From assembly GCF_963921235.1 (NCBI RefSeq), contig NC_086108.1, positions 33,792,001-33,856,000 of the forward strand: a stretch of DNA of 64,000 nt, given 5' to 3'. The translations under genes were made by a program, and so were the position numbers. Source of the stretch: Mobula hypostoma (lineage: Eukaryota). A model generated the notes under the pieces. That model ran no database searches. It was not told the origin of the DNA and saw only the letters and a list, made by a program, of their open reading frames with translations. Positions 4,759 through 55,227 of the stretch are shown here, in pieces (the first letter of the stretch is position 1; every line of letters starts with the position of its first letter).

Positions 4759-4955
4759 CACAAACACGAGGAAATCTGCAGATGCTGGAAGTTCAAGCAA
4801 CACTCATCAAAGTTGCTGGTGAATGCAGCAGGCTAGGCAGCATCTCTAGGAAGAGGTACAGTCAACGTTTCAGGCCGAGACCCTTCGTCAGGTCTTGGCC
4901 CGAAACGTCGACTGTACCTCTTCCTAGAGATGCTGCCTGGCCTGCTGCGTTCACC
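4759..4955 (-). mobile_element. Short palindromic Penelope-like pLTR insertion
   Basis: 65-bp inverted arms at 4818-4882 and 4891-4955 with an 8-nt loop. TSD TGTACTA at 4752-4758 and 4956-4962. Matches the terminus of the 13130 element. Confidence 0.85.
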
Positions 4956-6029: not shown

Positions 6030-6495
6030 GGTTTTATTTGCCACATGTGTATTGGAATATCAAAATAGGCAGTGAAATGTGTTGTTTTGTGTCAACAACC
6101 AGCCCAAAACAGTCGGAGGATTGGGCTGAGGTAGCGTGTAAGTGTTTCCTCACTCCTAGCTCCAACACAGCATGTCTCAGCTCACGAACACTAACGGTAT
6201 GTCTTTAGGAATGTGGGAGGAAACTGGAGCAACCACAGGAAAACCAAGCGATCATGGGTGGAACTTAGAAACTCCTTATAAACTCCAATTAAACTTCATG
6301 AAGAAGAGGCTCAGCCCCAAACGTCGACTTATTGTTCATTTCCATGGATGCTGCCTGGCCTGCTGGGTTCCTCCAGCATTTTGTGTGTATTGCTTTGGAT
6401 TTCCAACACCTGCGGAATTTCGTGTGTTTACTGATCAAACTCCGAAGGTAATCACTGGCATTGTAAAGCAACAGTGCTAACTGCTACGCCACCAT
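6030..6495 (-). mobile_element. Decayed V-SINE-like element with an inserted pLTR remnant (about 6295-6430, + strand)
   Basis: V-domain-like reverse complement tgtgggaggaaactggagcaaccacaggaaaacc. pLTR motif gatgctgcctggcctgctg..cctccagcattttgtgt. Confidence 0.55.
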
Positions 6496-11668: not shown

Positions 11669-12167
11669 TAAAACATCTGATAGCAAAATAGAAGGAGGAA
11701 CTTAAAACAATCACATCTGCTAAGGTAGCCGCACAGGACAAACCAATTGGTCTAAGTTATTAGTCATATTAGTTTGTGTGGTTTTCTTTGCAATTGTGAT
11801 TGCTCCATAGAACATAGTGAGAGTGTTGGAGCCAAGTTCGCTGATAAAACAGTGGCTGATGGAAAAGTAAGCTATTTGGAAGGTGTAAAGTTCAAATGAA
11901 TATAGTTGAGTAGATAAGAGGGCACAAATTTAGGAGGTAGAATGTATGTTGGGAATTCTGAAGTTACCCTCTTCGGTAAGATAAATGAGAAAGCAGATTA
12001 TTGCTTAAATAGAGCACACTGCAGGGTTCTTTGGAACAGAAACACCTATGTGTTTTGAAACATGTGAAATGTGAATCTACAACCATGCAAATAAAGCAAG
12101 TAGTTAGGAACACAAATGTAACATAAGCCTTACAAGAAGTATGGATTAAAATAGTGTTAAAAATAAG

Positions 12168-12385
12168 GACACAAGAGATTCTGCAGATGTTGGAAATCTT
12201 TAGTAGCACACACGAAAAGCTGGAGGAACTCAACAGTCAGACAGCATCTAAGAGGGAAAATAAACTGCTAGCGTTTCAGGCCAAGATCTTCCATCAGAAT
12301 TCATCAGTCCAGATGAAGGGTCTCAGCCCAAAACATTGAATGTTTACTGCCTGACTGCTGAATTCCTCCAGCATTTTGTGCATAT
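12168..12385. mobile_element. Degenerate palindromic pLTR insertion
   Basis: Inverted arms (aaaagctggaggaactca versus gaattcctccagcatttt) meet at about 12295-12305, just upstream of a decayed hammerhead. Confidence 0.6.
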
Positions 12386-13233
12386 TGATGAAAATTCAAT
12401 AGAAAGAGCATTGGTGACAACACAGCTGGACTTGTGCATACAGTTTTGGTCTTCTTATTTCAAGAGGAATAAACTTTCCTTGGAAGTATTTCAGAGGAGC
12501 TTAACCAGGCCGATTCCTGGCATGAAGAATTTTTCTTATGAGAACCATTTGAGCACGTTAAGCCAATATTGTTTGGAGTTTAAATGAATGAGACATAACA
12601 GCTTTTGAAATGTAAGATCCTGTGGGGCTGAACAGAGCGGATGCTAGGAGGATTATTTTTTTTCTCAAGGGGAACCTAGAGCAAATGACATAGTTCCAGT
12701 ATTAGGGGGTAGCAACCCACTTAGGATAGGGATGTGGAGGAATTTCTTCAGGGGTCATGAATCTTTGGAATTCTCTACTTTGGAGCTGTGGAGGCATTGA
12801 AAATATTTAAGGCAAAGATAAACAGGTTATACAGAGTTCAAGCAATTCAGGACAGACAGGAAAGAGGAATGGCAGCTGAGCTTAGAATAGTTATAACTTT
12901 ATTGACTGATGGAGCAGCCTAAGGGGTTGTTTAAGCTATTCGTGCCACTACTTATTTTCTTTCCTTCAGCTCCTCATGTTCTTCTTTTTGTAACTTGGTG
13001 ATCTGGTGAAGGGTAAAACAGGAGTCCTCTCTTAAGACCTTGCAGAGATCATGAAAGGACGTTGCCCTCATAAGCTTCTCCCTAAACTTTATGGTGGCTG
13101 TTGTGTGCAGGAACAGATGATAGTGAAGGAAACGCAAACAACAGGAATTCTGCAGATGCTGGAAATTCAAGCAACATACATCAAAGTTGCTGGTGAACGC
13201 AGCAGGCCAGGCAGCATCTATAGGAAGAGGCGC

Positions 13234-13269
13234 AGTCGACGTTTCAGGCCGAGACCCTTCGTCAGGACT
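13234..13269 (-). ncRNA. Minimal type I hammerhead ribozyme motif, intact
   Basis: AGUC-CUGACGA-AGG gucucgg CCU-GAAAC-GUC-GACU. Stem I AGUC/GACU, stem II AGG/CCU, both core boxes present, palindromic ACGU in place of stem III, as known for PLE hammerheads. Confidence 0.8.
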
Positions 13270-14144
13270 AACTGAAGGAAGAGTGAGTAAGGGATTTGAA
13301 AGCTGGAGGGGGAGGGGGAGATGCAAAATGATAGGAGAAGACAGGAGGGGGAGGGATAGAGCCGAGAGCTGGACAGGTGATAGGCAAAAGGGGATACGAG
13401 AGGATCATGGGACAGGAGGTCCGGGAAGAAAGACAAGGAGGGGGGGGTGACCCAGAGGATGGGCAAGAGGTATATTCAGAGGAACAGAGGGAGAAAAAGG
13501 AGAGTGAGAGAAAGAATGTGTGCATAAAAATGAGTAACAGATGGGGTACGAGGGGGAGGTGGGGCCTTAGCGGAAGTTAGAGAAGTTGATGTTCATGCCA
13601 TCAGGTTGGAGGCTACCCAGACGGAATATAAGGTGTTGTTCCTCCAACCTGAGTGTGGCTTCATCTTTACAGTAGAGGAGGCCGTGGATAGACATGTCAG
13701 AATGGGAATGGGATGTGGAATTAAAATGTGTGGCCACTGGGAGATCCTGCTTTCTCTGGCGGACAGAGCGTAGATGTTCAGCAAAGCGGTCTCCCAGTCT
13801 GCGTCGGGTCTCGCCAATATATAAAAGGCCTCATCGGGAGCACCGGACGCAGTATATCACCCCAGTCGACTCACAGGTGAAGTGATGCCTCACCTGGAAG
13901 GATTGTTTGGGGCCCTGAATGGTGGTAAGGGAGGAAGTGTAAGGGCATGTGTAGCACTTGTTCCGCTTACACGGATAAGTGCCAGGAGGGAGATCAGTGG
14001 GGAGGGATGGGGGGGACGAATGGACAAGGGAGTTGTGTAGGGAGCGATCCCTGCGGAATGCAGAGAGAGCGGGGGAGGGAAAGATGTGCTTAGTGGTGGG
14101 ATCCCATTGGAGGTGGTGGAAGTTACGGAGAATAATATGTTGGA

Positions 14145-14889
14145 GATGTCTTCCTTTTTTAAAGAAAGGGGCTTCCCTTCCTCCACTATCAACTCTGCTC
14201 TTAAACGCATCTCCCCCATTTCACGTACATCTGCTCTCACTCCATCCTCCCACCACCCCACTAGGAATAGGGTTCCCCTGGTCCTCACCTACCACCCCAC
14301 CAGCCTCCGGGTCCAACATATTATCCTCCGTAACTTCCGCCACCTCCAACGGGATCCTACCACTTGGCACATCTTTCCCTCCCCCCCTCTCTCTGCATTC
14401 CGCAGTGTTCGCTCCCTACGCAACTCCCTTGTCCATTCGTCCCCCCCATCCCTCCCCACTGATCTCCCTCCTGGCACTTATCCGTGTAAGCGGAACAAGT
14501 GCTACACATGCCCTTACACTTCCTCCCTTACCACCATTCAGGGCCCCAAACAGTCCTTCCAGGTGAGGCAACACTTCACCTGTGAGTCGGCTGGGGTGAT
14601 ATACTGCATCCGGTGCTCCCGATGTGGCCTTTTATATATTGGCGAGACCCGACGCAGACTGGGAGACCGCTTTGCTGAACATCTATGCTCTGTCCGCCAG
14701 AGAAAGCAGGATCTCCCAGTGGCCACACATTTTAATTCCACATCCCATTCCCATTCTGACATGTCTATCCACGGCCTCCTCTACTGTAAAGATGAAGCCA
14801 CCTTCAGGTTGGAGGAACAACACCTTATATTCTGTCTGGGTAGCCTCCAACCTAATGGCATGAACATCGACTTCTCTAACTTCCGCTAA
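14145..14889 (+). pseudogene. Penelope ORF C-terminal part: linker, Cys motif and GIY-YIG endonuclease (RT absent)
   Basis: CKRNKCYTC..GVIYCIRCSRCGLLYIGETRRRLGDRFAEH..VATHFN..LEEQHLIF..GMN; open to the stop at 14889. Codons before about 14144 belong to the inverted arm. Confidence 0.85.
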
Positions 14890-15185
14890 GGCCCCACCTC
14901 CCCCTCGTACCCCATCTGTTACTCATTTTTATGCACACATTCTTTCTCTCACTCTCCTTTTTCTCCCTCTGTCCCTCTGAATATACCCCTTGCCCATCCT
15001 CTGGGTGAACCCCCCTCCTTGTCTTTCTTTCCGGACCTCCTGTCCCATGATCCTCTCGTATCCCCTTTTGCCTATCACCTGTCCAGCTCTCGGCTCTATC
15101 CCTCCCCCTCCTGTCTTCTCCTATCATTTTGGATTTCCCCCTCCCCCTCCAACTTTCAAATCCCTTACTCACTCTTCCTTCAGTT

Positions 15186-15221
15186 AGTCCAGATGAAGGG
15201 TCTCGGCCTGAAACGTCGACT
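15186..15221 (+). ncRNA. Hammerhead motif with a mutated core (CAGAUGA)
   Basis: AGTC CAGATGA AGGGTCTCGGCCT GAAAC GTC GACT; the U of CUGA is replaced by A. Confidence 0.6.
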
Positions 15222-15375
15222 GCACCTCTTCCTACAGATGCTGCTTGGCCTGCTGCGTTCACCAGCAACTTTGATATATGTTGCTTGATAGTGAAGGTGT
15301 AGCCTGTGGTCCAATTGAAAAGGGATGTGTAGTACTCACAATGAAACACTGTTAATGTAATGAGTTTACATACCT

Positions 15376-17565
15376 GTAAGACCACAAGACATGGAAGCAG
15401 AATTAGGCCATTTGGCCCATCGAGTCTGCTCCACCATTTGATGATGGATGATTTATTTTCCCTCTCAACCCATTCTTCTGCATTCACCCCGTAATCTTTG
15501 ACACCCTTACCAATCAAGAATATATCAATCTCCACTTTAAAATTACCCGTGAATTTGGCATCCAGAGCCATCGGTGGCAATGAATTCCACACATTCACCA
15601 CCATCCTATTAAAGAAATTCATTCTTATCTCTGTTCTAAAGGGACGTCCTTCTATTATTCTGAGGTGCCCTCTGATGCTAGACTCTCCCTCTACAGGAAA
15701 CATCTTTTGCACGTCTATTCTATCTAGGACTTCTAATATACAGTAGGTTTCAAAGAGATCCCCCTCAATGAGTTCTTCTAAACTCCAGTGACTACAGACC
15801 TACAGCACCTCGTGTTAACCCTTTCATTCCCAGGATCATTCTTGTGAATCTCTTCTGGATGCCAGCACATCCTTTCTAAGATAGCAGTTTGGGGCTCCAT
15901 ATTTAAGAAGGATGGGGCCCCAAACTGCTCACAATACTCCAAATGCAGTCTGATCAATGCCTCATAAAGCCTTAGCATTAGATCCTTGCTTTTATATTCT
16001 AGTCCTCTAGAAATGAACACTAACATTGCAATTGCCTTCCTTACCACCGTTTCAGCTTGCAAGTTAACCTTCAGGGTACAAGGACTCTGAAATCCATTTG
16101 CATTTCCAACTTCTGAAATTGTTCCCTGTTTAGAAAATAGTCTATGCCTTTATTCCTTCTACCAAAGTGCATGACCATACACTTCCGTACACAATATTCC
16201 ACCTGCCACTCCTTTGCTCATTTTCTCAATCTCAGTCTTTCTGCAGACTCGTTGCCAACACTAGCTGCCCTCCACCTATTTTGGTATCATCCACAAACTT
16301 AGCCCAAAACCATCAATTCTATCGTCAAGCTCAGAGACCTCGGCCTGCACCCCACCTTGTGCAGCAGCATCCTAGACTTCCTATCGGATCGCTGACAGGT
16401 GATATTGATGGGCTCCCTCACCTCTGCCTCCCTGACCCTCAACACAGAGGCCCCCCGGAGTTGTGTTCTGAGAATCCTTCTCTACTTCCTGTACACCCAC
16501 GACTGTGCTGCCACACACAGCTCCAACTTGTTGATCAAACTCACAGATGACACGACTTTGATCAGCCTTATTTCTAGCAGTGACAAGACAGCCTACAGAG
16601 GAGAGGGTGACACCCTGACACAGTGGTGCTAAGATAACAAACTCTCCCTCAATGTCCAAAAAACAAAAGAGCTGATTGTGGATTACAGGAGGAACGGAGA
16701 CAGGCTCGGCCCCCGATCAACGTCAATGAGTCTGCAGTTGAGAGGGTGAGTAGTTTAAATTCTTCAGTATACACATCACCGATCATCTCACCTGGACCAC
16801 ACGCACTGGCTTTGTGGCAGAAAAAGCACAACAGCGTCTCTTCCACCACAGGCGACTGAAGAAGTTCAGCGTGGGACCCCAAATCCTCAAGACCTTCTAC
16901 AGGGGCACATTGAGAGCATCCTCACTGGCAGTATCACCACCTGGTACAGGAACTGCACCAACCGTGATCGCTGGGCACTGCAGACAATGATATGAGCAAC
17001 CCAGCGCATCTGAGGATCTGAACTTCCCTCCACTGAGGACAGTTATAGCATCAGGTGCAGAAAGAAGGCCTGGAAGATCATCAGGGACACCAGTCACCCT
17101 AACCATAAACTGTTTCAGCTGCTTCCATCTGGCAAATGGTACCACAGCATTAAAGCCAGGACCAACAGGCTACAGGGCAGCTTCTTTCTACAAGCTATTA
17201 GACTTTTAAATTCACATGTCTGTACATTGTGACAGAGTCAAAACGCAAAGATTTTTACTCCCTTACGTTGTGGGATGGATGTAAGATTTAAATAAATTCA
17301 AGTTAAATAAATTCAATTCCAAATCATTGACATATAACATGAAAAGATGCAGTCCCATCACCAAACCATGCAGAATATCATTAGTAACCAGCAGCCAAAC
17401 AGGAAAAAACCCTCTCTATTCCCACTCTATGCCTTCTACCAGTCAGCCAATCTTCTATCCTTCCTAGTATCTTTCCTGTGAGACAATGGGCTCTAGTTAA
17501 GCAAGCCTCATATGTGGCACCTTATCAAAAGCCTTCTGAAAATCCAAGTAAACAACATCCATCAT
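15376..17565 (-). mobile_element. CR1 ORF2 3' part split by a Rex-Babar insertion
   Basis: RLHLEYCEQF (15778-16062), YLDFQKAFDKVPH (17497-17560); tail at about 15376-15395. Confidence 0.8.
16328..17320 (+). mobile_element. 5'-truncated Rex-Babar LINE
   Basis: LYTHDCAATHSSNLLIKLTDDTTLISLIS (RT). Tail is aaataaattcaa repeats. The host CR1 resumes at caaatcattgac. Confidence 0.75.
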
Positions 17566-18882: not shown

Positions 18883-21800
18883 TTGGGGGGTGGGAATCAA
18901 ATTAAAGAGACTAGGCGTGAGGAGGTTAGTTCACAACAGGGGGGTGGGAACCAGTGCAGAGAGACAGAGGGGTGTAAAGTGAGCGTAGAAGCAAAAAGTA
19001 CAAAGGAGAAAAGTAAAAGTGGCAGGCTGACAAATCCAGGGCAAGCATTAAAAAGGGCCACTTTACAACATAATTGTACAAGGGCTAAGAGAGTTGTAAA
19101 AGAGCGCCTGAAGGCTTTGTGTGTCAATGCAAGGAGCATTCGTAATAAGGTGGATGAATTGAAAGTGCAGATTGTTATTAATGATTATGATATAGTTGGG
19201 ATCACAGAGACATGGCTCCAGGGTGACCAGGGATGGGAGCTCAACGTTCAGGGATATTCAATATTCAGGAGGGATAGACATGAAGGAAGGGGAGGTGGGG
19301 TGGCGTTGCTGGGTAAAGAAGAGATTAATGCAATGGAAAGGAAGGACATAAGCCGGGAAGATGTGGAATCGATATGGGTAGAGCTGTGTAACACTAAGGG
19401 GCAGAAGACGCTGGTGGGAGTTGTGTACAGGCCACCTAACAGTAGTAGTGAGGTCGGAGATGGTATTAAACAGGAAATTAGAAATGTGTGCAATAAAGGA
19501 ACAGCAGTTATAATGGGTGACTTCAATCTACATGTAGACTGGGTGAACCAAATTGGTAAAGGTGCTGAGGAAGTGGATTTCCTGGAATGTATGCGGGATG
19601 GTTTTTTGAACCAACATGTCGAGGAACCAACTAGAGAGCAGGCTATTCTGGACTGGGTTTTGAGCAATGAGGAAGGGTTAATTAGCAATCTAGTCGTGAG
19701 AGGCCCCTTGGGTAAGAGTGACCATAATATGGTGGAATTCTTCATTAATATGGAGAGTGACATAGTTAATTCAGAAACAAAGGTTCTGAACTTAAAGAGG
19801 GGTAACTTTGAAGGTATGAGGCGTGAATTAGCTAAGATAGACTGGCAAATGACACTTAAAGGATTGACGGTGGATATGCAATGGCAAGCATTTAAAGGTT
19901 GCATGGATGAACTGCAACAATTGTTCATCCCAGTTTGGCAAAAGAATAAATCAAGGAAGGTAGCGCACCCGTGGCTGACAAGAGAAATTAGGGATAGTAT
20001 CAATTCCAAAGAAGTAGCATACAAATTAGCCAGAGAAAATGGCTCACCTGAGGACTGGGAGAAATTCAGAGTTCAGCAGAGGAGGACAGAGGGCTTAATT
20101 AGGAAGGGGAAAAAAGATTATTAGAGAAAACTGGCAGAGAACATAAAAACGGACTGTAAAAGCTTTTATAGATATGTAAAAAGGAAAAGACTGGTAAAGA
20201 CAAATGTAGGTCCCCTACAGACAGAAACAGGTGAATTGATTATGGGGAGCAAGGACATGGCAGACCAATTGAATAATTACTTTGGTTCTGTCTTCACTAA
20301 GGAGGACATAAATAATCTTCCAGAAATAGTAAGGGACAGAGGGTCCAGTGAGATGGAGGAACTGAGCGAAATACATGTTAGTAGGGAAGTGGTGTTAGGT
20401 AAATTGAAGGGATTGAAGGCAGATAAATCCCCAGGGCCAGATGGTCTGCATCCTAGAGTGCTTAAGGAAGTAGCCCAAGAAATAGTGGATGCATTAGTGA
20501 TAATTTTTCAAAACTCGTTAGATTCTGGACTAGTTCCTGGGATTTGGAGGGTGGCTAATGTAACCCCACTTTTTAAAAAAGGAGGGAGAGAGAAACCGGC
20601 GAATTATAGACCGGTTAGCCTAACGTCGGTGGTGGGGAAACTGCTGGAGTCAATTATCAAGGATGTGATAACAGCACATTTGGAAAGCGGTGAAATGATC
20701 GGACAAAGTCAGCATGGATTTGTGAAAGGAAAATCATGTCTGACGAATCTCATAGAATTTTTTGAGGATGTAACTAGTAGAGTGGATAGGGGAGAACCAG
20801 TGGATGTGGTATATTTGGATTTTCAAAAGGCTTTTGACAAGGTCCCACACAGGAGATTAGTGTGGAAACTTAAAGCACACGGTATTGGGGGTAAGGTATT
20901 GGTGTGGGTGGAGAATTGGTTAGCAGACAGGAAGCAAAGAGTGGGAATAAACGGGACCTTTTCAGAATGGCAGGCGGTGACTAGTGGGGTACCGCAAGGC
21001 TCAGTGCTGGGACCCCAGTTGTTTACAATATATATTAATGACTTGGATGAGGGAATTAAATGCAGCATCTCCAAGTTTGCGGATGACACGAAGCTGGGTG
21101 GCAGTGTTAGCAGTGAGGAGGATGCTAAGAGGATGCAGGGTGACTTGGATAGGTTGGGTGAGTGGGCAAACTCATGGCAGATGCAATTTAACGTGGATAA
21201 ATGTGAAGTTATCCACTTTGGTGGCAAAAATAGGAAAACAGATTATTATCTGAATGGTGGCCGATTAGGAAAAGGGGAGGTGTAACGAGACCTGGGTGTC
21301 ATTATACACCAGTCATTGAAAGTGGGCATGCAGGTACAGCAGGCGGTGAAAAAGGCAAATGGTATGCTGGCATTTATAGTGAGAGGATTCGAGTACAGGA
21401 GCAGGGAGGTACTACTGCAGTTGTACAAGGCCTTGGTGAGACCACACCTGGAGTATTGTGTGCAGTTTTGGTCCCCTAATCTGAGGAAAGACATCTTTGC
21501 CATAGAGGGAGTACAAAGAAGGTTCACCAGATTGATTCCTGGGATGGCAGGACTTTCATATGAAGAAAGACTGGATGAACTGGGCTTGTACTCGTTGGAA
21601 TTTAGAAGATTGAGGGGGGATCTGATTGAAACGTATAAGATCCTAAAGGGATTGGACAGGCTAGATGCAGGAAGATTGTTCCCGATGTTGGGGAAGTCCA
21701 GAATGAGGGATCACAGTTTGAGGATAAAGGGGAAGCCTTTTAGGACCGAGATTAGGAAAAACTTCTTCACACAGAGAGTGGTGAATCTGTGGAATTCTCT

Positions 21801-21915
21801 GCCACAGCAAACTGTTGAGGCCAGTTCATTGGCTATGTTTAAGAGGGAGTTAGATGTGGCCCTTGTGGCTACAGGGGTCAGGGGGTATGGAGGGAAGGCT
21901 GGGGCGGGGTTCTGA
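18883..21915 (+). pseudogene. CR1 ORF2 (APE endonuclease plus RT), two nonsense codons, no frameshift
   Basis: ORFs starting 18883, 20236 and 21316 share a frame; stops at 20122-20124 and 21283-21285. Motifs NARSI, GITETWL, MGDFN, SDHN, YLDFQKAFD, GVPQGSVLGP, KFADD. Confidence 0.92.
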
Positions 21916-24239
21916 GTTGGATGATCAGCCATGATCATAATAAATGGCGGTGCAGGCTCAAAGGGCCGAATGGCCTACTCCTGCACCTATTTTCTATGTT
22001 TCTATGTTTCTATGTAACAGGCCATGGGCACAGTAAAAAATAGTCTCGAAGTCCCAAGTCGATCGATTCCCGAGTTCCCGATAGCAGGCGGGAAAAGGGA
22101 GAAACTCCCTGCCATAAACCTCCAGGCACCATCAACTTGCCGATGCCTTGGAAGCAGCCGACCACAGCCAACACTGAGTCCATCCATCCGAAAACTTCAA
22201 GCTTCCAACCAGCCCCTCCGATACAGCCTCCCGAGCGCCATCCTCTACCAAGCGCCTTCGACCTCTCCCCAGCCACCGAAACACGCAAAGCCGAGGATTT
22301 CGGGACCTTCAGTTCCGGATATTCTGGTTACCACACAGTAGCATCGGCAGCGAACGGGGCATTTCAGAAGTTTTCCAGATGTTCCTCCGTACTCTCACGT
22401 CCATCTCCATCAAATCAGAATTGTGCACGTTCCCATACTTGACAGATAACAGACATTATCACCGAAGAGGCCGCGTGCAATGCCGTCGCGCCTCCATCTT
22501 CTCCTCCCATTAAGATATTTAGAGATATGAAATCTCTTGTCTCCATTGTGTACAGATTTTCACTCTTGGAGGAAACAGCTCAAGCCACCTTCTGCGTCAG
22601 CTTCTTCTCATCTTGGCCCTTGGAGGTTGCCTGGATCCCTTGACACACAGTCCCTTCCTCTGAGCATGCGTCTCAGACCCCAGCAGGGCAATGTCCCTTT
22701 GTGTAAATATCCCCCGCATCAGAGTCACAGTAAAGTGGGAGCTGCTGCACTGAATTTCACCTAGTCCTGCTAGGAACCATGAGAGACTTCATTTGAACAA
22801 CTTTGCTTATGTGTACAAGGTTAGAGTGCTGTGCATGCTTGGATTTGCCTTTTCTTGACAAGGACCTGATTTAGCACTAGCACCACAAATACCCCTATTT
22901 CAGTGTGCAAAAGTAAGTGCAATCCAATTGCATACATTTATGTTTCTCCTGCTGTAAAAATAAAGTTGTAGATTATTTAACTATTCTCAAGAATATCAGA
23001 CACAACCTACCAGCAATCAGTAAAACTTCTCAATTTTTAACAAGATATACCAATACCATCACACACATTAAAACATTATATTAAACTGGTCTCAGTGAGA
23101 ATAAATTAAAAATATCATGGAAAACACACAAAAAAACTTTCCTGATGGTCATAAAAACCTGGTTCTAATAGTCACTGAGACTAAGCAGAAATATTGACAG
23201 AAAATTCATATTCAAGTATTCGTAACAAAGCGCACAGGGATGGCAAGATTGCAGTTGGGGAAATGAATAGATGCTGTCAAAGACTATGGCAATTGGAGCT
23301 ATTGGAATGGTCATAATATGGCAATGCTTTAAATTTTAGTAGTATTTTAGATTGCGCAACTGATTTGCATTCAAGTAATGTACATCTCTGGGTACAAGTC
23401 ACACTGGGAAATTAATACCATATTGAGAAGGTAGAAAAGGCAGTAAACATGTTTTCCTATTATCAACAATAAAATTGCCTCTAGCCAAACTCCATTGCAC
23501 TTCTTTATCTGGTAATTACATTGGCAGTTTCAGCAACGCACTTGCTAGGTTCTTGACAACATTTTACAAAAATCTTGGGACGGTGCATTAAGTGCTTTTT
23601 GGCACCCAGCAATGTCTGGGAGGAAGAGGCTGAGACTTCTCAGGGGGAGTTCTTTCATAGCAGAACTAAAATATTGACTGTTCCATCACATATACTCAGG
23701 GATTATTTGAGAAAAACTCTTTCTGACCTAGTAAAGGAATTTTCTAAGAGCTATCTGGACTTTCTTATTAACTCTTTACACAATGAAGCTGGTTGTTGTA
23801 GCATTACCCCCAATGTATAACTTTGTTTTTTTCCTAGTGAACAGTTGTATGCATCTTCTCAAAATTCAGCCTTGGAGGAAAAATTCAATGAATGATTTGT
23901 TTGGCCTCAAAAGTTTAAATTTTTCTATTTAAGTAAATTTTTATTGTGGCTTGTCTGGTAAAGCACCAGAGTTCTGCTTTCAGCAATTTAAAACAGCTTG
24001 TGGTGAATATTTTGGGGACCTAGTTTATAGCCTGCTGTTGGAGAACCTTACTGCTTCTACACTAGAGTCTGCATTGTACAAAGGAGAACGATGTAAATTC
24101 ATGATCAGAACTGTGATTTAAGGCTCCAGAGATTTTTGCATATTTCATATTGATGCAAAATAAGCAAATAAAACCAGCCTCCGTTTTTCACAAGCCCAGA
24201 CTCAGTCTCTTTGCCTTTGTCGCATTTGTTCCAATGGAA

Positions 24240-28200: not shown

Positions 28201-29960
28201 AGAATATGACCCATCTACAACCACTCTTTGCCTTCTGTGGGCAAGCCAGTTCTGGATCTACAAAGCAATGTCCCTTTGGATCCCATGCCTCCTTACTTTC
28301 TCAATAAGCCTTGCATGGGGTACCTTGTCAAATGCCTTGCTGAAATCCATATATGCTACATCTACTGCTCTTCCTTCATCATTGTGTTTATTCACATCCT
28401 CAAAAAATTCAATCAGGCTCGTAAGGCACAACCTGCCCTTGACAAAGCCATGCTGACTATTCCAAATCATATTATGCCTCTCTAAATGTTCATAAATCCT
28501 GCCTCTCAGGAACTTCTCTATCAACTTACCAACCACTGAAGTGGGAGGCACTGGTCTATAATTTCCTGGGCTATCTCTACTCCCTTTCTTAAATAACGAA
28601 ACAACATTCGCAACCCTCCAATCCTCCAGAACCTCTCCTGTCTCCATTGATGATTCAAAGATCATCGCCAGATGCTCAGCAATCTCCTCCCTCACCTCTC
28701 ACGGTAGCCTGGGGTACATCTTATCCGGTCCCAGCGACTTATCCAACTTGATGCTTTCCAAAAGCTCCAGTACATCGTCTTTCTTAATATCTGCATGCTC
28801 AAGCTTTTCAGTCTGCTGCAAGTCATCACCACAATCACCAAGATCCTTTTCCATAGTGAATATTGAAGTAAGGTATTCATTAAGTACCTCTGTTACTTCC
28901 TCTGGTTCCATACACACTTTCCCACTGTCACACTTGATAGGTCCTATTCTTTCACGTCTTATCTTCTTGCTCTTCACATACTTGCAGAATGTCTTGGGGT
29001 TTTACTTAATCCTGCCCGCCAAGGCCTTCGCATGGTCCCTTCTGGCTCTCCTAATTTCCTTCTTAAGCTCCTTCCTGTTAACCTAATAATCTTCTATATC
29101 ACTAACATCACCAAGCTCTCTGAACCTTTTGTAAGCCTTTCTTTTCTTCTTGACTAGATTTATTACAACCTTTGTACACCACGGTTCCTGTACCCTACCA
29201 CAACTTCCCTGTCTCATTGGAACATACCTATGCAGATCTCCACACAAATATCCCCTGAACATTTGCCACATTTCTTCCATACTTTTCCCTGAGAACATCT
29301 GTTCCCAATTTAAGCTTCCAATTTCCTGCCTGATAGCCTCATAATTCCCTTTCCTCCAATTAAAAGCTTTTCTAACTTGTCAGTTCCTATCTCTCTCCAA
29401 TGCTATTGTAAAGGAGATAGAATTATGATCACTATCTCCAAAATACTCTCCCACTGAGAGATCTGACACCTGACCAGATTCATTTCCCAATACCAAATCA
29501 AGTACAGTCTCTCCTCTTGGAGGCTTATCTACATATTGTGTCAAGAAACTTCCTGAACACACCTAACGAACTCCAACCCATCTAAACCCCTTGCCAATCG
29601 ATACTTGGAAAACTAAAATCTCCCATCATGACAACTCTGTTATTATTACACCTTTTCAGGATCTGTTTCCCTATCTGCTCCTCGATATCCCTGTTACTAT
29701 TGGGCGGCCTATAAAAAACACCCAGTAAAGTTATTGACTCCTTTCTGTTCCTAACCTCCAACCACAGAGACCCCGTAGACAATCCTTCCATGATGTTCAC
29801 CTTTTCTACAGCCGTGACACTATCTCTGATCAACAGTGTTATGCCTCCATCTCTTTTGCCTCCTTCCCTGTCCTTTCTGAAACATCTAAAACCCGGCACT
29901 TGAAGTAACCATTCCTGTCCCTGAGCCATCCAAGTCTCTGTAATGGCCACCACATCATAG

Positions 29961-31980
29961 AAACATAGAAACATAGAAAATAGGTGCAGGAGTAGGCCAT
30001 TCGGCCCTTTGAGCCTGCACCGCCATTTATTATGATCATGGCTGATCATCCAACTCAGAACCCCACCCCAGCCTTCCCTCCATACCCCCTGATCCCCATA
30101 GCCACAAGAGCCATATCTAACTCCCTCTTAAATACAGCCAATGAACTGGCCTCAACTGTTTCCTGTGGCACAGAATTCCACAGATTCACCACTCTCTGTG
30201 TGAAGAAGTATTTCCTAATCTCGGTCCTAAAAGGCTTCCCCTTTATCCTCAAACTGTGACCCCTTGTTCTGGACTTCCCCAACATCGGGAATAATCTTCC
30301 TGCATCTAGCCTGTCCAATCCCTTTAGGATTTTATACGTTTCAATTACATCCCCCCTCAATCTTCTAAATTCCAATGAGTACAAGCCCAGTTCATCCAGT
30401 CTTTCTTCATATGAAAGTCCTGCCATCCCAGGAATCAATCTGGTGAACCTTCTTTGTACTCCCTCTATGGCAAGCATGTCTTTCCTCAGATTAGGTGACC
30501 AAAACTGCACACAATACTCCAGGTGTGGTCTCACCAAGGCCTTGTACAACTGCAGTAGTACCTCCCTGCTCCTGTACTCGAATCCTCTCGCTATAAATGC
30601 CAGCATACCATTCGCCCTTTTCACTGCCTGCTGTACCTGCATGCCCACTTTCAATGACTGGTGTATAATGACACCCAGGTCTCGTTGCACCTCTCCTTTT
30701 CCTAATCGGCCACCACTGAGATAATAATCTGTTTTCCTATTTTTGCCACCAAAGTGGATAACTTCACATTTATCCACATTAAATTGCATCTGCCATGAAT
30801 TTGTCCACTCACCCAACCTATCCAAGTCACTCTGCATCCTCTTAGCATCCTCCTCACAGCTAACACTGCCGCCCAGCTTCGTGTCATCCGCAAACTTGGA
30901 GATGCTGCATTTAATTTCCTCATCCAAGTCATTAATATATATTGTAAACAGCTGGGGTCCCAGCACTGAGCCTTGCGGTACTCACTAGTCACCGCCTGTC
31001 ATTCTGAAAAGGTCCTGTTTATTCCCACTCTTTGCTTCCTGTCTGCTAACCAATTCTCCATCCACATCAATACCTTACCCCCAATACTGTGTGCTTTAAG
31101 TTTGCACACTAATCTCCTGTGTGGGACCTTGTCAAAAGCCTTTTGAAAATCCAAATATACCACATCCACTGGTTCTCCCCTATCCACTCTACTAGTTACA
31201 TCCTCAAAAAATTCTATGAGATTCGTCAGACATGATTTTCCTTTCACAAATTCATGCTGACTTTGTCCAATGATTTCACCGCTTTCCAAATGTGCTGTTA
31301 TCACATCCTTGATAACTGACTCCAGCAGTTTCCCCACCACCGACGTTAGGCTAACCAGTCTATAATTCCCCGGTTTCTCTCTCCCTCCTTTTTTAAAAAG
31401 TGGGGTTACATTAGCCACCCTCCAATCTTCAGGAACTAGTCCAGAATCTAACGAGTTTTGAAAAATTATCACAAATGCATCCACTATTTCTTGGGCTACT
31501 TCCTTAAGCACTCTAGGATGCAGACCATCTGGCCCTGGGGATTTATCTGCCTTCAATCCCTTCAATTTACCTAACACCACTTCCCTACGAACGTGTATTT
31601 CGCTCAGTTCGTCCATCTCACTGGACCCTCTATCCCCTACTATTTCTGGAAGATTATTTATGTCCTCCTTAGTGAAGACAGAACCAAAGTAATTATTCAA
31701 TTGGTCTGCCATGTCCTTGCTCTCCTTAATCAATTCACCTGTTTCTGTCTGTAGGGGACCTACATTTGTCTTTACCAGTCTTTTCCTTTTTACATATCTA
31801 TAAAAGCTTTTACAGTCAGTTTTTATGTTCCCTGCCAGTTTTCTCTCATAATCTTTTTTCCCCTTCCTAATTAAGCCCTTTGTCCTCCTCTGCTGAACTC
31901 TGAATTTCTCCCAGTCCTCAGGTGAGCCACTTTTTCTGGCTAATTTGTATGCTTCTTCTTTGGAATTGATACTAGAATTG
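29961..31980 (-). mobile_element. Young 5'-truncated CR1 (level 4), same subfamily as 18215-22015
   Basis: TSD ATCATAG at 29954-29960 and 31981-31987. ORFs 30055-30966 and 30999-31970 are nearly identical in translation to the 18-22 kb ORF2. Confidence 0.92.
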
Positions 31981-41478: not shown

Positions 41479-41571
41479 TCACAGCCCATTCTTGATCAAT
41501 TCTTGGGCTCCATTTTCATCAATAATCAGGGGAGTACGGAAGTCTCGATTTGCAACGTATTTATCCAGACC
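41479..41571 (-). CDS. UAP1: UAP1 last coding exon
   Basis: gtttcag|[36 protein letters not shown]. Confidence 0.95.
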   Translation of the reverse strand, partial: GLDKYVANRDFRTPLIIDENGAQELIKNGL

Positions 41572-44500
41572 CTGAAACACAAATCTGATTTAGTTCCACC
41601 AATACAATTGTGCATCAATGAACAAAATATTGCCAACATTATGGAACTAAAGAAAAATTCGCAGGAAGTTGTTATGGTTCTATTATTTTTGATTTGAAAT
41701 TAAGCAATTTCAGAAGAATACATCCTTTTAATATACTAGCTGAAAAATCCCAGTCCCAAATAAATCAAACGGTGGTGCCTCAATTGTGTTCCTGGCAGAA
41801 GCAGGCTTACAGTATATTTGAGTTCATAAGAACCGTTAATGCATTCATGTAGTAAGTAAAGGCCAGTATTAAACAGCCTCAGTGGTGGTGGAGAGCTGCA
41901 AAGGGAAGGCAATACATTTTCAACTCCAGGAAATTGCAGGGGAGTCAAGAGATATTTTCCTGTCATTGTCCTTCATAGCAGTGGAGGTTTGGGACATGCT
42001 GTCAGAATAGGCCAGACAAATCAAAAAGCTACAGAACCTATGCCTCTATATCTCCCTCTACAACTAGATCCTTGACTTCCTGACGAGAAGACCACAATCT
42101 GTGCAGATTGGAAATAACATCTCCACTTGGCTGACAATCATATCTGGCACACCCTAGGGGTGTGTGCTTATCTCACTGCTCTATTCTCTCTACACTCAAC
42201 GACTGTGTGGCTAGGTACAGCTCAAATGCCATCTATAAATTTGCTGATGATACGACCATTGTTGGCAGAATTTCGGATGATGACGAAAGGGCGTACAGCA
42301 GCGGGATATACCAGTTAGCTGAGTGGTGTTGTAGCAACAAACTTGCACTAGAAGACAGAAAGATCAAAGAGCTGACTGTGGACTTCAGAAAGGGAAAGAC
42401 AAAGGAAAACAAACAAATCCATATAGAGGGATCGGAAGAGGAGAGAGTGAGCAATTTCAAGTTCCTGGGTGTCACTATCTCTCAGGTCCTAACCTGGACG
42501 CAACATATTATTGCAGCTATAAAGAAGGCAAGACAGTGGTTGTATTTCGTTCGGAATTTGAGATTTGGTTTGCCCACTAAAACACTCGAAAACTTCTACA
42601 AATGTACCGTGGAAAGCATTCTGACTGGCTAATATGCGGGGGGAGGTGGGGTGCTACTGCACCAGATTGAACTAAGTTGCAGAAATTTGTAACATTAGTC
42701 AGCTCCATCATGGGTACTAGCCTCCATAATATCCAAGACAGCTTCAAGGAGCAATGCTTTAGTAAGGCGGCATCCATCATTAAGGATCCCCACCACCCAG
42801 GACATGCCCTCTTCTCATTGTTACCATCGGGAAGGAGGTACAGAAGCCTGAAGGCACACACTCAGCAATTCAGAAACAGCTTCTCCCCCTCTGCCATCTG
42901 ATTTCTAAATGGACATTGAGCCCACGGACACTACCTCACTAATTTTTTTTATTTCCGATTTTTTGCACCTTATTTTAACTCAACTGCTTAATAGACATAT
43001 ATATATACCTACTGTAATTCAGTTTTTCCCTGAACTTATTTATCATATATTTCATTGTACTACTGACATAAAATTAATGAATTTCACGACATATGCTGGT
43101 GATATTAAACTTGATTCTGATTCTGAAATATCATGTATTTTGTAGATTGTACCTCTTGTAGTTGGCAGTGCATTTGTGATGGAGTAAGTACACATTTAGA
43201 TCAATTGACAGTCGTCAAAAATCAAATTGCTTTCTTCTAAATGGTGTGAAGTTTCTTATTGCTGTTGGATTTCCATTCTTCCAAACAACTGGAGTGCAGC
43301 ACAGTGAACTCTCAACCTGTACCCCATTGATGGTGGAAAGACTGTGAATAGTCAGGAGATAACTACTCATTGTAATTGTCCGGTTTCTGAGTGGGGTTCC
43401 TGTTGCTACTCCGGCTTCACTTATTAAATATCTGGGCAATAGCGATTTCCAGAAAGAAGATAGTGAAGGAATTAGTAATTGGATGTCACTGCAGTATATA
43501 TAATAGCACATGCCCAAATGTGTAACGTCTTTTTATGTGCAGTCATACACTATGTTGTTATGTGTAGAACTCTGAATGGAACAGATCACAGAATCAGACA
43601 TCATCACCATTTTCAAACATACAATGGAGGATAAGTCAAAGATGAAGCAACTGAAAATGGATGGTCTAAGAACGGAGGCGGGGGGGGGCACAATGACAAT
43701 TGACTTCCATTAATCACAACACCTTCCTTTATGCAAGGTTTGACAATGGTCAGTGCAGGGATAGTTTTTCCCTTTGCTTCGCACCGACTTTGCACATTTC
43801 AAGTTCTATATAGTGGACCACTACTAAGAGCAAAAAAAAATTATTTTTGAGAAATATGCATTAAGAAAAAGAATAAGGAGATAGTGATAAATAGAATAAG
43901 CTTTCTAGGGGAGTGCTGGGGAGTGCATGTTATCAGGGACAGAGATTGAGTTCGATGAATGGGAAGTCCAGGATATACAAGAAGTCAAGACTTCGAGGTT
44001 CAGTTAAGGAAAGAGGAAACAGGAATTGGGGTGGTACATTCATTGTACAGAAGCCTCAGGACCCACACCACCAGATTCAGTTCAGGAACAGTTATTACCC
44101 CTCAACCATCAGTCTCTTGAACCAGAGGGAGCACTTCACCGCACCGCATCACTGAACTGTTCCCAAAACCTATAGACTCACATTCAAGGACTCTTTTATC
44201 TCATGTTCTTGATATTTATTGCTTATTTATTATTATTATTATTTTCTTTTTTTGTCTTTGTATTTGCAAGGTTTGTTGTCTTTTGCATACTGGCTGCCTA
44301 ATTTATTAGGTACGGTCTTCCATTGATTCTATAGTGTTTCTATGTATTTACTAAGAATGCCCGCAAGAAAATTAATCTCAGGGCTGTATATGGTGACATA
44401 TATGAACCTTGATAATAAATTTACTTTGAACATTGTATTAAGATAATGTTCTTGGGTATTGAAGCCAAGAGTAAGCTTTGGTTCAGGGGGGAATGGGGTA

Positions 44501-47500
44501 GGATGGTATAAAATGAATACTAAACTAAGTGAAGGAGGAAGTTTAGTCTGATAGGAGAAAGCACAGACTTTTTCAGCAGACAGGATATACGCCTCTGCTG
44601 CCATCTCATTCTAGTAAAATTATCCTTTACCCAACATGGATCTTAGGAACAACTTATAAATTTGACATTGAGTCAAAGTTGGTATAAGCCATGACTCCAA
44701 TACACAGTGCTGATGAATGCCCTTGCTCTTGTTACCCATGCTATTCTAACCTGCCTACCTGGATCCCATTTTCTTTTTTTTTTGTAATTTATTTTTTTAT
44801 TGAATTTCATCAAACGTTTGCAAAAGATGTATTTCAGATACTGTACATATATATCATATAATCGTATTTGTCACAAATCTCCACATAATATTTATCTGAG
44901 GTATACACTTATAGAAAGGAAAGAAACAATCGAAAGAAGAAAACTATGTACAGAGTAGGGAGTGTTCTTTTTTTACAACATATTTGTTGACTAGTGAGAA
45001 TAAACATAAGATATGTATTTTCCAAAATACTTCACAAGTGGATGAAACAAAATAGGATCGAGAACAGGATAAACCTAGGGAGTTCAGGACACCAGATGAA
45101 CCTTCCCAGCCAGAGTTCTTCACATTGCTTCACCTGAGAAGCACTGCATAGCACAATTTTTGTAGGAGTGGTAAGTCAGCCAGTAATAAGGTTACATAAG
45201 TATTTATTTATTATGCATTCTGGGGGTAACTGAATCAAATGACATGCATCATAAATGTGCTGGATTTTGTTGGCTACTCAGATGGACAAACTGGTCATTT
45301 TGCCCTAGCAGCAGAGCAGTCTTGCTGGAATTTCCCTGAACTACCCTCCAAAATCACACAGCAGATATTACCTGCATAAGATTCAAGACCCCAAAGGTCA
45401 GGAGACAATTTTGCTTCTGCTCTAAATGTTTTGCGCATATAAATTTTACAGAACTATTTGTAGTAATTACAGCTTTATATATTCAAAGCACCATTCAAAC
45501 TTTCCTGGCAATAAAAAGACAGTGGGGCAATATTAAAGGAGCAGCTTCTTCCCTGTATTATCAAAAAACTCTATTCCCACCCAGAAATGCTGCTTTACTT
45601 TGGGGTGCAGAAAGTCAGTGAAAATGCTTTTCCGCATCCAGACCATATAGGCTTAGAAGTGGGAGAACAATGGGCCATAAATCCAGTACAGAGACTAGGC
45701 CATCACATGCTCAAAAGTAGTGACAATGGCAGATTCCATAATGAACAATTCCCTTCAGAGTTCATCAGATAACAAAGTAGTATATGGCTATGAAAAAAAA
45801 ACAGAGCAATTGGGCATGGGTTAATAAACAAATTGCAATGATATTCGATTGCCAACACCTCCAGTCCTGGAATTCCCCATTGAGCTGAAATTTAACATAT
45901 GCATCCCAGCTGACGCAAGAACCAGCCAGAAACTGGATATCTTGCAAGGAGTGTCTTATTTCCTGACTACTCCCTGTCAATGAAGTAAAAGTTAGGAGCA
46001 TTGTTCACAACCTTCCCATTGTCTGGAAGTGCAAATCCAATAACCGTATGGCAGCTTACACCATTTAGAACAAAGCAACTTGATTGATTGACAGCCAGTC
46101 CACTGCTCTGTAGATTTATTTATTCCATCATCAATGCACTGCTACTATAGGTATTGTTTATGAATGACACTTCAGAAGATTGTCCAGCCAATTCTGGTCT
46201 AGTTTTATATCTCCAGCTTTCACTGAGATGTGTAATTCATCTTAATGAATCACCACAATCAGACAGCAAAAATAATTTTCTCATAAATCCTTTAGGCAAA
46301 AAGCTCCAGAATTCTGACTGTGAGGCTAGGAATAGTAATTTAAAAGTCAGGTTGGTGGGCAATTTTCTGGTAATCTTGGAAGTGGTGAGTATCTCTATAC
46401 CTGCTACACTGATTTTTCAATTGTCTTTTGGAGCTGATGCTAAAGACTCAGTGAATTAAAGGGCATTCTGAAGCCAAAGATTCAAAGCCTTTTCACCACT
46501 TCACCAGATACAAATGGGGAGTATCATGGAACACTTGTAACTGAACTGATGAGTGCAGTTCAACAGCAAATGGGGCAAACCAGCCCCCTTCCACCATCCT
46601 AATCATTCATTGACTGCACTCCTGGTACACTATCACTGGAACCTGCATTACTTTTGGAATACACCACAGTAACTTGCCACGGTTTCTTCAGCAATATCTC
46701 CTAATTTCAAACTTTACCACCCGAAGGGGCAAGGGAGTGATACCACATGCAAGTTCTTCTTCAAGTCTACTGCTAGCATTCACTGTTAAAGCTATCTGCT
46801 TAAGTCCCTCCATGATAGCACAATAAGGGTAGCTTCACTACACAGATTGTAACAAATCAAGATAAAGTTCACTACCATCTTCAAGGGCAAATTGATTTAC
46901 TGGTTTTTATAATTATGCCCATGTCCAGTAAATTAAATAAAACATCACAAAAAAATGGTCCCAAACATGAAGCAAGCCACAGAAGAAATAAACTATACTT
47001 AGCAGATATCTGTCCATTGTATGTTTGGAATGTGCTCTTCACCACAATAAATATTTACTAAGTTAATAGGTCATTGAAGGCTCACTGATCAGAAATGTTT
47101 TCAAATCTGGAATTTCTCAGCCTTAAGAATCTTCTAGACTAAATACCATACTGTTTGTAGCAGCTTGGAATAACTGACCAACAATGTCACTGCAGGATCT
47201 GAAGGACCCCCTCTTCCACACTCTACAAGACTCACCTCTCCAGCATAAGATACAAGTGCAGAAATTTCACATTTGATTGGAAGATCTGTCAACTCCTTCA
47301 GACTGAAAAGTAAAATTCAATCTTCAGCAACTTAAAAAACATTCAGTCAGCAAATGCAAGTCTCCTTAGAATCTATTCACCACCCTACACAAAACAGCAT
47401 CAATAATTCATAGTGAATCTCAATAAATTTCATAATACTTTTGGTCAAATTAAGATTTAAGATTACATTTTTTTTTAGGTTAGTGGTTGTATTACCACAA

Positions 47501-50500
47501 AATGTCACTTGTTTCATGTGATGTGACAATGAAGTATCTATTGTGAAAGGCAAGATTTAATCTAATCACTCTGGATCAATTGCAGCAAAATTGGCCTATA
47601 AGGTTCAAAACTCATGTTGTAGATTAACTGAGATCTTCTACATAATGGACCAAAACCTCAGAATAGTGAATAGAGAAAAAATTTTGCATGGAACATATCA
47701 AATCAGCTAACATTTTATAATAATGTCCAATAACATTGTACGTCATTTAACCTAAGTATTCAGTTACAATAAATATGCCTTGTAGGTTGAAGGTATTCAA
47801 GCCAATTTCTAAACCTGGAAGTAAAGATTGTGATTGGAAGAACCATCAGCACATTTGTGAGCAAATTCACTCTCAGTTAACTTTGTAATCAATGTGCTCT
47901 AATTCAGTTTTCTATTCTATTATCCCTAATAATAATGGAATAAAAGACAACAATTTTAAAATAATTTAATTAATAGTGGATAGATTCTTTAGAAGACATA
48001 GCACCGCTTAATTAAATGCCCCAAACCATCCACCAATACTTTAGTTAACATGCTAAAGATATTCATGCATGCAAACCTTGTTTTGTGTTAGTATGTGCCT
48101 TTTCATCACTCATCTAATAAGATTAGTATTTACCTGAAACTGCCAATGTCTAAACCCTGACGATACTTTTAAGGGATACAGACATGAACTATTTCTTAGG
48201 CTCAATGACATTGTGCAGTCAATTAGCATTTCAGATATAGGAAAAAAACGTTTTGGAAACAATAACACAAAAAAAAAATCAATGAAATATTTCCATGGTT
48301 TTAGGAGTGAGTGTACAGTATATCCAGAAATGGATCAATATTAAACAGCAAATTAAAAGAAAACTAAAGTACAAAAATTCTCAAACTTAGAACTAAATGT
48401 AAAATGGAACTAAATTGGTTTTTATCTCCTAATGTTTTAAAAGGCAGTCTGGCTAAGTACAAAGCAACTTCACATTATTTTTGTTTACAAGAGATACAAT
48501 GACCTATAAAGAATACAAAATCGGATCAGGTGGTGACTAACCCTCACATTCCAATTCATTTATAATGTAGCTGCAAGAAAACCTCCATTCTACTGCTGTT
48601 AAGAGTTCTTTTAAAATTTCCTTGAAAGCTAACTTATATTGGAGGGACAATACATTTATGCTTACTTAACAAATAAATTAGACTCTATACAAATAACAAC
48701 TACAATTCTAACTTTGATATGTTTCCAAAGTATAATATTACTAACTATTCCAGTGAACCAAAATACTACATTTAAACATATAACCCCACCTCCCAAGAAA
48801 ACTCATGTTTTCCATTGAGCTTTTACACACTGGCAGTAAGTACATAGTGGCAAGTATTCCCCTTCAGTCTACAGTGTTTTGCTTTTAGTCAGTAGCAAAG
48901 CAGCAATGACCCATCACCATGCATTAAACTGAACCCAAAATATTTACTTGTCATTGACAACAGCAGTGACTGCCTCTGACATTCCAGTTGCCGAACTGCC
49001 ACATGGGAAGAAAGAGCGAGTTAATGGGAAAATAAAATGCAACAAAACCATAAAAGTTACAAATGAATGTGGGACCAAAATAAAAATAAACAAAGCTACT
49101 ATGTATAAAATGCATTTAAATTTTAGATGTGAATTTTTATAGATTTTAAAAGACTGATGAAAGATGGATAACATCACTTTTCAATCTACAAATTTCTCCT
49201 CTATTCAAATAAAAGCAAAACAGGATTATAAGATAAACTGGCTCGTCTATTTTCTAAATCAACATTAAATTAGTTGACTCACCATACACAATTCATAGAG
49301 ACCTCGAACATGATGTGGATATCATAACAATCATGACATCATAACATAAATAACTAAATAGCACTTTGTTTTCTATGAATGCTCTGTAATAACTATTATT
49401 TTTTCGAGATTATACTGTATTAATTTTTATCAATTAAATCAGGAGCCAAAACATGCATAAATATAAACATTTGGGGAAACAAAACTAAAAATGTTTTTGT
49501 GTTCACTAACATAACAAAATGGAAATGTGAAATTTAAATTTATATGAAAACACAAGGAAAATCTTAAGTAAAAACATACATAAGTATTGTATTATTAATT
49601 TCTTTCCTCTCTTTAGTAAAGTCATGAAGGCTACGACATTGAAAATCTACTTTCAGCTCATTGTTAAATTGTAATAAAAAGCAGCCAGACATCACATGAG
49701 AAACATTTTATATGATAAATGAAAAATAAATGGGAAATTAAACATAAATAAATTCTGAATGTAATTATTTATTTCAATGTCATCTATAACAATTAGACTT
49801 TATGTGAGAACTACAGCGATGACAAATACTTAGGAAATGGAAGGGAGCAAAGCATAGTGGAAGATTTCAATTAGGAGCGAAGTTGTGGTAAGCAAATTGA
49901 TGGAGCTGAAGACTAACAAACTCCAGGTCCTGAAGAACTTCATCTTAGAATCTTAAAACGAGTGGCCAATGAGATGGATAATGTAGTTACAAGAGATGGC
50001 AGACGCTGTAATTTGGAGCAAAAAGGAAGCTACTGAAGGAACTCTGCAGGTCAAGCAGCATTTGTGCAGGGAAATGGACAAGTGTTGTTTCTGGTTGAGA
50101 TCCTTCATCTGCACTGCAAAGTTAGAGGGCAGATAGCCTGTATAAATGAGGTGAGGAGAAGGCTTGAAGCAAGAGCTGGCAAGCAAAAGGTGGATCCAGG
50201 TGAGAGAGGATAACTGGCGGTGGCGGATAGGGGAGGAAAGGGTGGTCATAGTCAGAGGGGCAGAAAGGTGATATGTGAAAATAAGAAGATGCAGGTTATG
50301 GAATCTGATAAGAAAGCAAGGTGGAGTGGAACCAAATAAGGGAGATCTGTGATGTAGTACAGAGCTCTGCAACACCTTGGCAAAAATAAATTTAGTACGT
50401 TAGGTACTTGAGCAGTCAGGGTAGCTTACAAAATGTTATCATTTGTTGCTAGGCCAACTGAATACAATTAAAAGTAGAGAAGTTATGCTACATTTAAATA

Positions 50501-54770: not shown

Positions 54771-55227
54771 CTGAAATTAAATAAAAACAAAATATCTGAA
54801 GTTACTTAATAAAAAAAAATCTAACATTTTGTTGCAGAGAAAGATTAATAAATTCTAGAATTCTAGCCACTTAGCCAAATGAACACCATGTAAATTGACG
54901 CCGGCAGGTTTTCCACTTCAAAAACAAGTTGGTGATTATTTCTCCAAAGTCAAAGGAGTATCAAGAATATTGGAAAAAGCTGTGAATGGAGATTGATTGG
55001 GACCTAATATATGCACAGGTCGATTCATTATATCTATTAGCATAAGTAAAACTGAAATCATGATCAAGATGTTCTTTCCTAATCATTTGCCAAACTTCAG
55101 CTGGGAGTTCTAAGTTTACTAGTGCTTTTCTGGGAGGTTCAGGCTTGAGTTGCAGGGAGATATGAACCAGAGCGCCAGCACAGATAGTAGAGTAGTTATG
55201 AGGAAAGATACTGTGAAGAAGGGGGCG

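Follow-up and report, generated by a model that had tools for sequence, protein, structure and literature searches.

A young head-to-head pair of 5'-truncated Penelope-like copies forms a near-palindrome in the genome of Mobula hypostoma

Genomic context of the insert

In the window analysed, i.e. the whole 64,000-nt stretch of Mobula hypostoma contig NC_086108.1, positions 13130-15285 are occupied by a young head-to-head pair of 5'-truncated Penelope-like element (PLE) copies, which are assigned to the Neptune type below. The Pfam scan of 24 long and 150 shorter ORFs (174 in all, from which short exons could have escaped) yielded matches of the retroelement type (RT, endonuclease, esterase, ALKBH8_N and a terminal C2H2 finger), one weak RAP1 match below the cut-off and one exon of UAP1. 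The last exons of this gene, which encodes UDP-N-acetylhexosamine pyrophosphorylase, lie on the minus strand at 41482-54773 and agree with M. hypostoma protein P0021 across the aligned residues that the exons encode; a short alternative exon is located at 48950-48997. No other host exons were detected among the 174 ORFs scanned. The placement of the insert within a UAP1 intron was considered and rejected, since the UAP1 coding sequence ends near 41482, 26 kb away. With the insert left out, translation of the flanks revealed no reading frame that could be recognised, and no host function is indicated.

Several smaller PLE pieces are scattered over the same window. The 197-nt head-to-head insert at 4759-4955 belongs to the same family and has a 7-bp target-site duplication (TSD) and a centre of its own; its second arm stops 62 nt short of the 3' end, and its tail and loop are found on the same arm. 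Another head-to-head insert, 88% identical to the main one, is situated inside a LINE remnant at 59045-59615. It is flanked by a 13-bp TSD with one mismatch and consists of a long tail-less piece, 45-49 nt short, and an 87-nt tailed piece, which again meet at their own centre. The 135-nt single copy at 60157-60291 carries an 8-bp TSD and has its start a short way upstream of the hammerhead. PLE end fragments of greater age and divergence are present at 6296-6427 and 12169-12380, the latter being a small head-to-head pair located 750 nt from the insert.

Other repeats of the window include two 2-kb pieces of a young LINE (19995-22014 and 29956-31974), which are 96.4% identical, inverted with respect to each other and 8 kb apart, and which encode an esterase ORF1, an AP endonuclease and an RT. 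The CpG-rich segment at 22001-22750 (observed/expected up to 0.94) adjoins a LINE 3' end and may represent either a promoter or a repeat. In addition, an 18-bp inverted repeat with an 11-nt loop (15883-15929) lies in a LINE remnant 600 nt to the right of the insert.

Structure of the insert and its target site

The insert is bounded by two exact copies of one 12-mer, the TSD TGATAGTGAAGG, at 13118-13129 and 15286-15297 on the plus strand. These are the sole two matches in the window, and two matches were obtained in none of 100 shuffles. As the preliminary description of this DNA held, a single perfect TSD encloses both copies, in keeping with the arrival of both arms in one event. The final three bases of the right arm coincide with the first three of the right TSD, so that TGA fits the element as well as the target and constitutes a 3-nt priming microhomology. 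The arms, described as near-identical over about 970 bp, were aligned from 13167-14144 to 14312-15288; this arm-to-arm check, likewise proposed beforehand, gave 35 substitutions and one gap column in 978 aligned columns, i.e. 96.3% identity.

The left copy (13130-14144, minus strand, 1015 nt) is 5'-truncated and comprises a linker Zn finger, the GIY-YIG region with a stop at 13831, and the 3' module. Its outermost 37 nt (13130-13166, minus strand) are the family 3' end, a tail which is found on this copy only and which recurs in the copies at 4759, 59615 and 60291. The right copy (14142-15288, plus strand, 1147 nt) is also 5'-truncated, has no tail, and keeps a frame open through GIY-YIG up to the stop at 14887-14889. 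The two copies join head to head at 14142-14144, where the 3-nt microhomology GGA is common to both, since the left arm alignment reaches 14144 and family contigs diverge from the window before 14142 (136 contigs from run X1 and 76 from run X9).

The segment between the arms, previously given as 168 nt from 14144 to 14311, actually measures 167 nt (14145-14311, plus strand). It is not a spacer in the proper sense: it is ordinary ORF of the right copy, located after the RT and before the linker Zn finger, and represents the length difference between the two copies. It shares the endonuclease frame (ORF 14041-14889) and aligns to relatives, and position 14311 is joined to the reverse of 14144 in family contigs (32 from X1, 18 from X5 and 14 from X9). 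The layout is crossed, with the tail on the left arm only and the 167-nt extension continuous with the right arm only; the arms are therefore not copies of each other. The insert contains no long direct repeat that would indicate direct pLTRs from a partial tandem, an absence to be expected where copies are truncated. Each arm had been described as carrying a GIY-YIG coding region and a pLTR; the former is indeed present in both, but there is no direct pLTR, the arms simply ending in the 3' module of the element. The insert cannot serve as a source element, and the object itself is an ordinary dead copy of an already known kind.

Identity of the element

GIY-YIG coding sequence is found in both arms, interrupted in the left copy by the stop at 13831. 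In the right copy, the one tested, the frame is open to 14889 and closes with a GIY-YIG domain. This domain covers residues 150-218 of 247, after which comes the stop, and it matches PF01541 with E = 4.8e-5, above the cut-off. The CCHH motif, for which two cysteines between GIY and YIG were required, is represented in the right copy by CSRC before LLYIGET together with the conserved histidines, and it is the second of these cysteines that the left-copy stop replaces. The codon concerned is TGA, and in Naiad PLEs selenocysteine codons occupy such CCHH cysteine sites (PMC8557442). Because the right arm and most relatives have the conserved cysteine here, the TGA at 13831 is most likely a private nonsense change.

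The search for longer proteins produced 15 matches among 1127 candidates, the best of which were ray and shark proteins (Hypanus, 75% identity; Rhincodon, 66%), several with an RT domain upstream. Homologues 42-51% identical over the full query carry PF00078 upstream; the insert's own RT core has been truncated away. The linker Zn finger C-x4-C-x2-C is present in both arms and in most relatives and, by the definitions given in PMC8557442, marks Neptune or Nematis and is missing in Penelope/Poseidon. Set against these definitions, and with no RT in the insert, the linker finger points to a Neptune-type element, Neptune being preferred to Nematis solely because the linker is full and not 'reduced'. 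Poseidon had been considered as the clade and was dropped on account of the same finger. The combination characteristic of EN+ PLEs, namely an inverted 5'-truncated copy, a one-sided tail and a TSD, is found here with a 37-nt tail and a 12-bp TSD. In metagenome scans for family copies, the hammerhead pattern gave no matches, and a pattern scan gave 157 hits, none of which was confirmed.

Hammerhead motifs

The insert was initially reported as a near-total palindrome with a hammerhead at each end. The palindrome stands; the hammerheads are a minimal motif on each strand, that on the right with an altered core. The motifs were judged by the core (CUGANGA, GAAA, UH), by whether helices I and II are present, and by whether helix III is palindromic. 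By inspection, the left copy possesses all of these in a minimal type-I motif at 13234-13269 (minus strand), with an intact core CUGACGA ... GAAA-CGUC and a predicted cut after 13238. In a by-eye comparison with the minimal PLE hammerheads of PMC4209133 it shares the short helix I of 4-5 bp, the full conserved core and the palindromic ACGU for helix III. The right motif (15186-15221, plus strand) fails at U4, which is changed to A at 15191, giving CAGA for CUGA; A at core position 4 occurs also in older relatives at 12310 and 50111. Such a change would be expected to impair hammerhead cleavage.

Rfam returned no matches over the 64 kb at gathering cut-offs and, within 13000-15400 at E up to 10, no hammerhead and one chance lncRNA match (E = 0.11); the hammerhead call thus rests on motif inspection. 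The 56-mer of neither arm folds into a hammerhead as its minimum, unlike that of the older single copy at 60157. For a single minimal motif no cleavage is reported in PMC4209133, where opposite-strand pairs are already noted; those of Schistosoma are 100-700 bp apart, while the present ones are separated by 1.9 kb and the right one bears U4A. On opposite strands and with one core change, the two hammerheads cannot, to judge from their sequences, act as the usual dimer. One transcript through the insert would hold one sense motif, paired within the long duplex, and the occurrence of two hammerheads is accordingly best seen as a side effect of the layout.

Hairpin and cruciform potential

The prediction that any transcript through the insert would form a dsRNA hairpin is correct as a conditional, the potential pairing extending over ~980 bp with 7 perfect runs of at least 30, the longest of 132; the one host gene detected stops 26 kb short of the site. 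Contigs of run X12, which may be RNA, leave most of the left flank uncovered and count neither for nor against transcription. If such inserts sit in transcribed regions, dsRNA of ~1 kb would result. The companion suggestion that the DNA could extrude a cruciform is disfavoured: a spacer of 167 nt separates the arms and their inner 100 bp contain 9 mismatches, which makes extrusion unlikely. Cruciform extrusion begins at the centre and declines with spacer length (PMC7999016), and in yeast a 200-bp spacer cut rearrangements ~20-fold compared with one of 12 bp, even though in long single-stranded DNA repeats lying far apart do still pair (PMC10164571). That 9 mismatches fall within the innermost 100 alignment columns has P = 0.011 for a single bin and is not significant over 10 bins. 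No editing signature is evident in the arm differences, with transitions in both directions on both arms.

Read support and age of the insertion

Contigs from 4 of the 24 listed runs were compared with the interval 11900-14311, outside which the right junction lies. The left junction is crossed, with 0 differences, by a 799-nt contig of run X1 (organism A, perhaps the assembly's own source), and none of the contigs listed spans the centre. The palindrome is real, with read support at the left junction. Single-copy contigs from run X5 (organism B) and from run X9 (organism C) match the flank through the left TSD to exactly 13129 and then diverge, continuing for 118 and 128 letters, respectively, that do not match the element. 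Organisms B and C appear to lack the insert, the empty site being deduced from this departure at 13129. If the extra letters are the right flank, the contigs would end 37-47 nt inside the LINE remnant starting at 15379, a place at which a break in a contig is to be expected.

The flank differs at 14 of 1195 positions between organisms A and B and at 42 of 982 between A and C. Both arms share letters found often in A but seldom in B (40% versus 0.4% of summed depth at 13364, and 19% versus 3% at 13177), from which it follows that the young subfamily expanded after the A-B split. The summed depth of the family, which is not a copy number, exceeds that of the flank by about five orders of magnitude; the family is very abundant in the genome. 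The insertion is young.

Formation of the inverted arms

The insert probably arose in one event, in which both target nicks primed cDNA near the RNA's 3' end. As the TSD suggests, the endonuclease would make a 12-nt staggered cut. Judging by the ends of the insert, the top-strand 3' end would then prime cDNA at the family 3' end, tail included (1015 nt), and the bottom-strand 3' end would prime 37 nt further in, aided by the TGA match (1147 nt). The junction is consistent with the two cDNA ends annealing via GGA, to be followed by fill-in. Since the two starts would both lie close to the RNA's 3' end, one stretch would be copied twice, hence the near-palindrome. What can be seen in the sequence itself is the layout, with its tail on one side, the microhomologies at the centre and at the right end, and two further inserts in the window whose centres differ.

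PLE insertions typically include a neighbouring 5'-truncated copy in inverted orientation and, at one of their ends, a tail of 30-40 bp (PMC8557442, PMC3846280), so the comparison with a known inverted-copy layout, drawn from the outset, is upheld, the arms being unusually even in the present case. The EN-bearing PLE inverted-repeat insertions (Pen2a_Av etc., PMC3846280; legend to Fig. 2 of PMC8557442) share with this insert the head-to-head inverted 5'-truncated copy, the one-sided tail, the single TSD and the short junction overlap. Here, however, both copies are truncated near-equally, so that the insert is mostly arm; the arm includes endonuclease coding sequence, and there is neither a direct pLTR nor a junction palindrome. 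In the other two window inserts the offsets, 45-49 and 62 nt, are larger than the 30-40 given in the literature.

According to PMC11167929, the purified anole PLE protein, for which a dimeric state is predicted, cuts and extends each of the two strands and starts reverse transcription at two adjacent sites bounding the tail. Two start sites so placed, the use of both strands and a hammerhead ~100-135 nt from the start sites are features common to that system and the present insert. The anole biochemistry, however, concerns a Poseidon element, a different clade from the Neptune-type insert, and PMC11167929, as drawn on here, offers neither a reconstruction of the inverted product nor a test of one versus two RNAs. 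The L1 twin priming with internal duplication (bioRxiv 10.1101/2024.08.27.596794) likewise involves priming from both nicks, joining by microcomplementarity, a 5' inversion inside one TSD, and an internal duplication when one cDNA passes the priming site of the other. In L1 the second primer is set far inside one RNA, whereas here it lies 37 nt from the end, hence the 978-nt duplication; unlike in L1, there is no poly(A), and the endonuclease is of the GIY-YIG type.

Fold-back, in which one cDNA snaps back via a short match and is copied back into a second arm, was the mechanism offered by the preliminary description, and it is now improbable. The 3-nt microhomology at the centre and the young-subfamily markers in both arms would suit it, and it permits the tail and loop of the insert at 4759-4955 to be on the same arm. 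In the main insert and at 59045-59615, however, they are on different arms, and neither arm is contained within the other: in the main insert the loop runs without a break into the right arm, which has no tail, and copy-back cannot supply the left tail. This crossed arrangement argues against simple fold-back, as do the arm difference at the family-polymorphic site 13885 and the required later trimming of the right arm exactly to the TGA target match. Template switching, suggested together with fold-back, survives weakly, in the sense that two cDNA ends annealed, and otherwise finds no support. For the inverted, head-to-head structures of rotifer Penelope elements, self-priming with an antisense strand as template has been put forward (PMC3846280), yet that model relies on junction palindromes where the present junction offers GGA only, and it leaves the ends at two start sites unexplained; its probability is slight, lower than that of fold-back.

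An older locus, itself head-to-head, could have given a read-through RNA that was copied in a single pass, the arm differences being inherited; such an origin would account for an arm divergence above the flank clock. It is as improbable as self-priming, given that the three window inserts have three different centres and that family contigs continue normally on either side of this one; moreover, the RNA would be a ~1 kb hairpin, and would need a 5' end falling precisely on a family end. Such structures are known to trouble assemblies (PMC8557442) and no listed contig crosses the centre, but an assembly or library artefact, i.e. a chimeric fold-back, would yield identical arms, while 36 columns differ and derived letters occur on both sides. 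As the TSD is also whole on either side, an artefact is very unlikely, more so than a read-through copy; in addition, the left junction is present in X1 and the arms are offset by the family tail. The least credible course is that of two insertions at different times, the second copy landing at the end of the first. The arms are 3.7% different and the PLE endonuclease can cut its own pLTR (PMC11167929), but one TSD surrounds both copies and no second duplication is seen at the centre or the ends.

Double priming at the two target nicks, by contrast with simple fold-back, agrees with the crossed tail and loop. The origin of PLE inverted ends is called unresolved in reviews (PMC8557442), and the insert is a clean record of how such ends form.

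One RNA or two

The long overlapping arms make it possible to ask whether one or two RNAs were copied at the two nicks. That the two cDNAs were copied from two different RNAs has an even chance or a shade better. At 13885, the letter of the left arm makes up to 25% of family depth in organism A and about 2% in B and C (1.6% in B), depths being unphased sums in which the remainders may include third letters, and the right arm has the majority letter. This letter could have been restored only by a specific transversion or by gene conversion, which hints at two templates. The arms also exceed the A-B flank divergence, which should cap them: at non-CpG positions they differ by 25/910 (2.7%) versus 14/1195 (1.2%) for the flank (one-sided Fisher p = 0.0065; p = 0.037 without the inner 100 columns), although the 95% intervals overlap (1.8-4.1% for the arms and 0.6-2.0% for the flank). 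The arm value equals, as a loose comparison, the 2.7% between the two separately inserted young LINE copies of the window.

Against two RNAs stand the young-subfamily markers common to both arms and the fact that 13885 is the one informative site among the 12 element rows listed (176 further rows are in the table). The excess of arm divergence may also have another source, if freshly inserted DNA that is GC-richer and methylated acquires mutations at a higher rate than the flank. Derived changes, assigned by eye, number 14 on the left and 15 on the right, with 6 unclear. The coding differences include a stop and show no excess of silent changes (4/21 versus a neutral share of 0.29, P = 0.23), a neutral spectrum that points to later decay.

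That a dimeric RT-endonuclease carries two different RNAs when head-to-head PLE inserts are made and copies one per nick, thereby joining two source loci, is a tentative extension of double priming, with a chance somewhat short of even. No published statement of a two-RNA model for PLEs turned up among the literature listings consulted; the supplementary Figs S1 and S2 of PMC11167929 may bear on it. If two RNAs were indeed copied, the insert would be a dated example of such joining, its arms standing on sister branches of one young subfamily.
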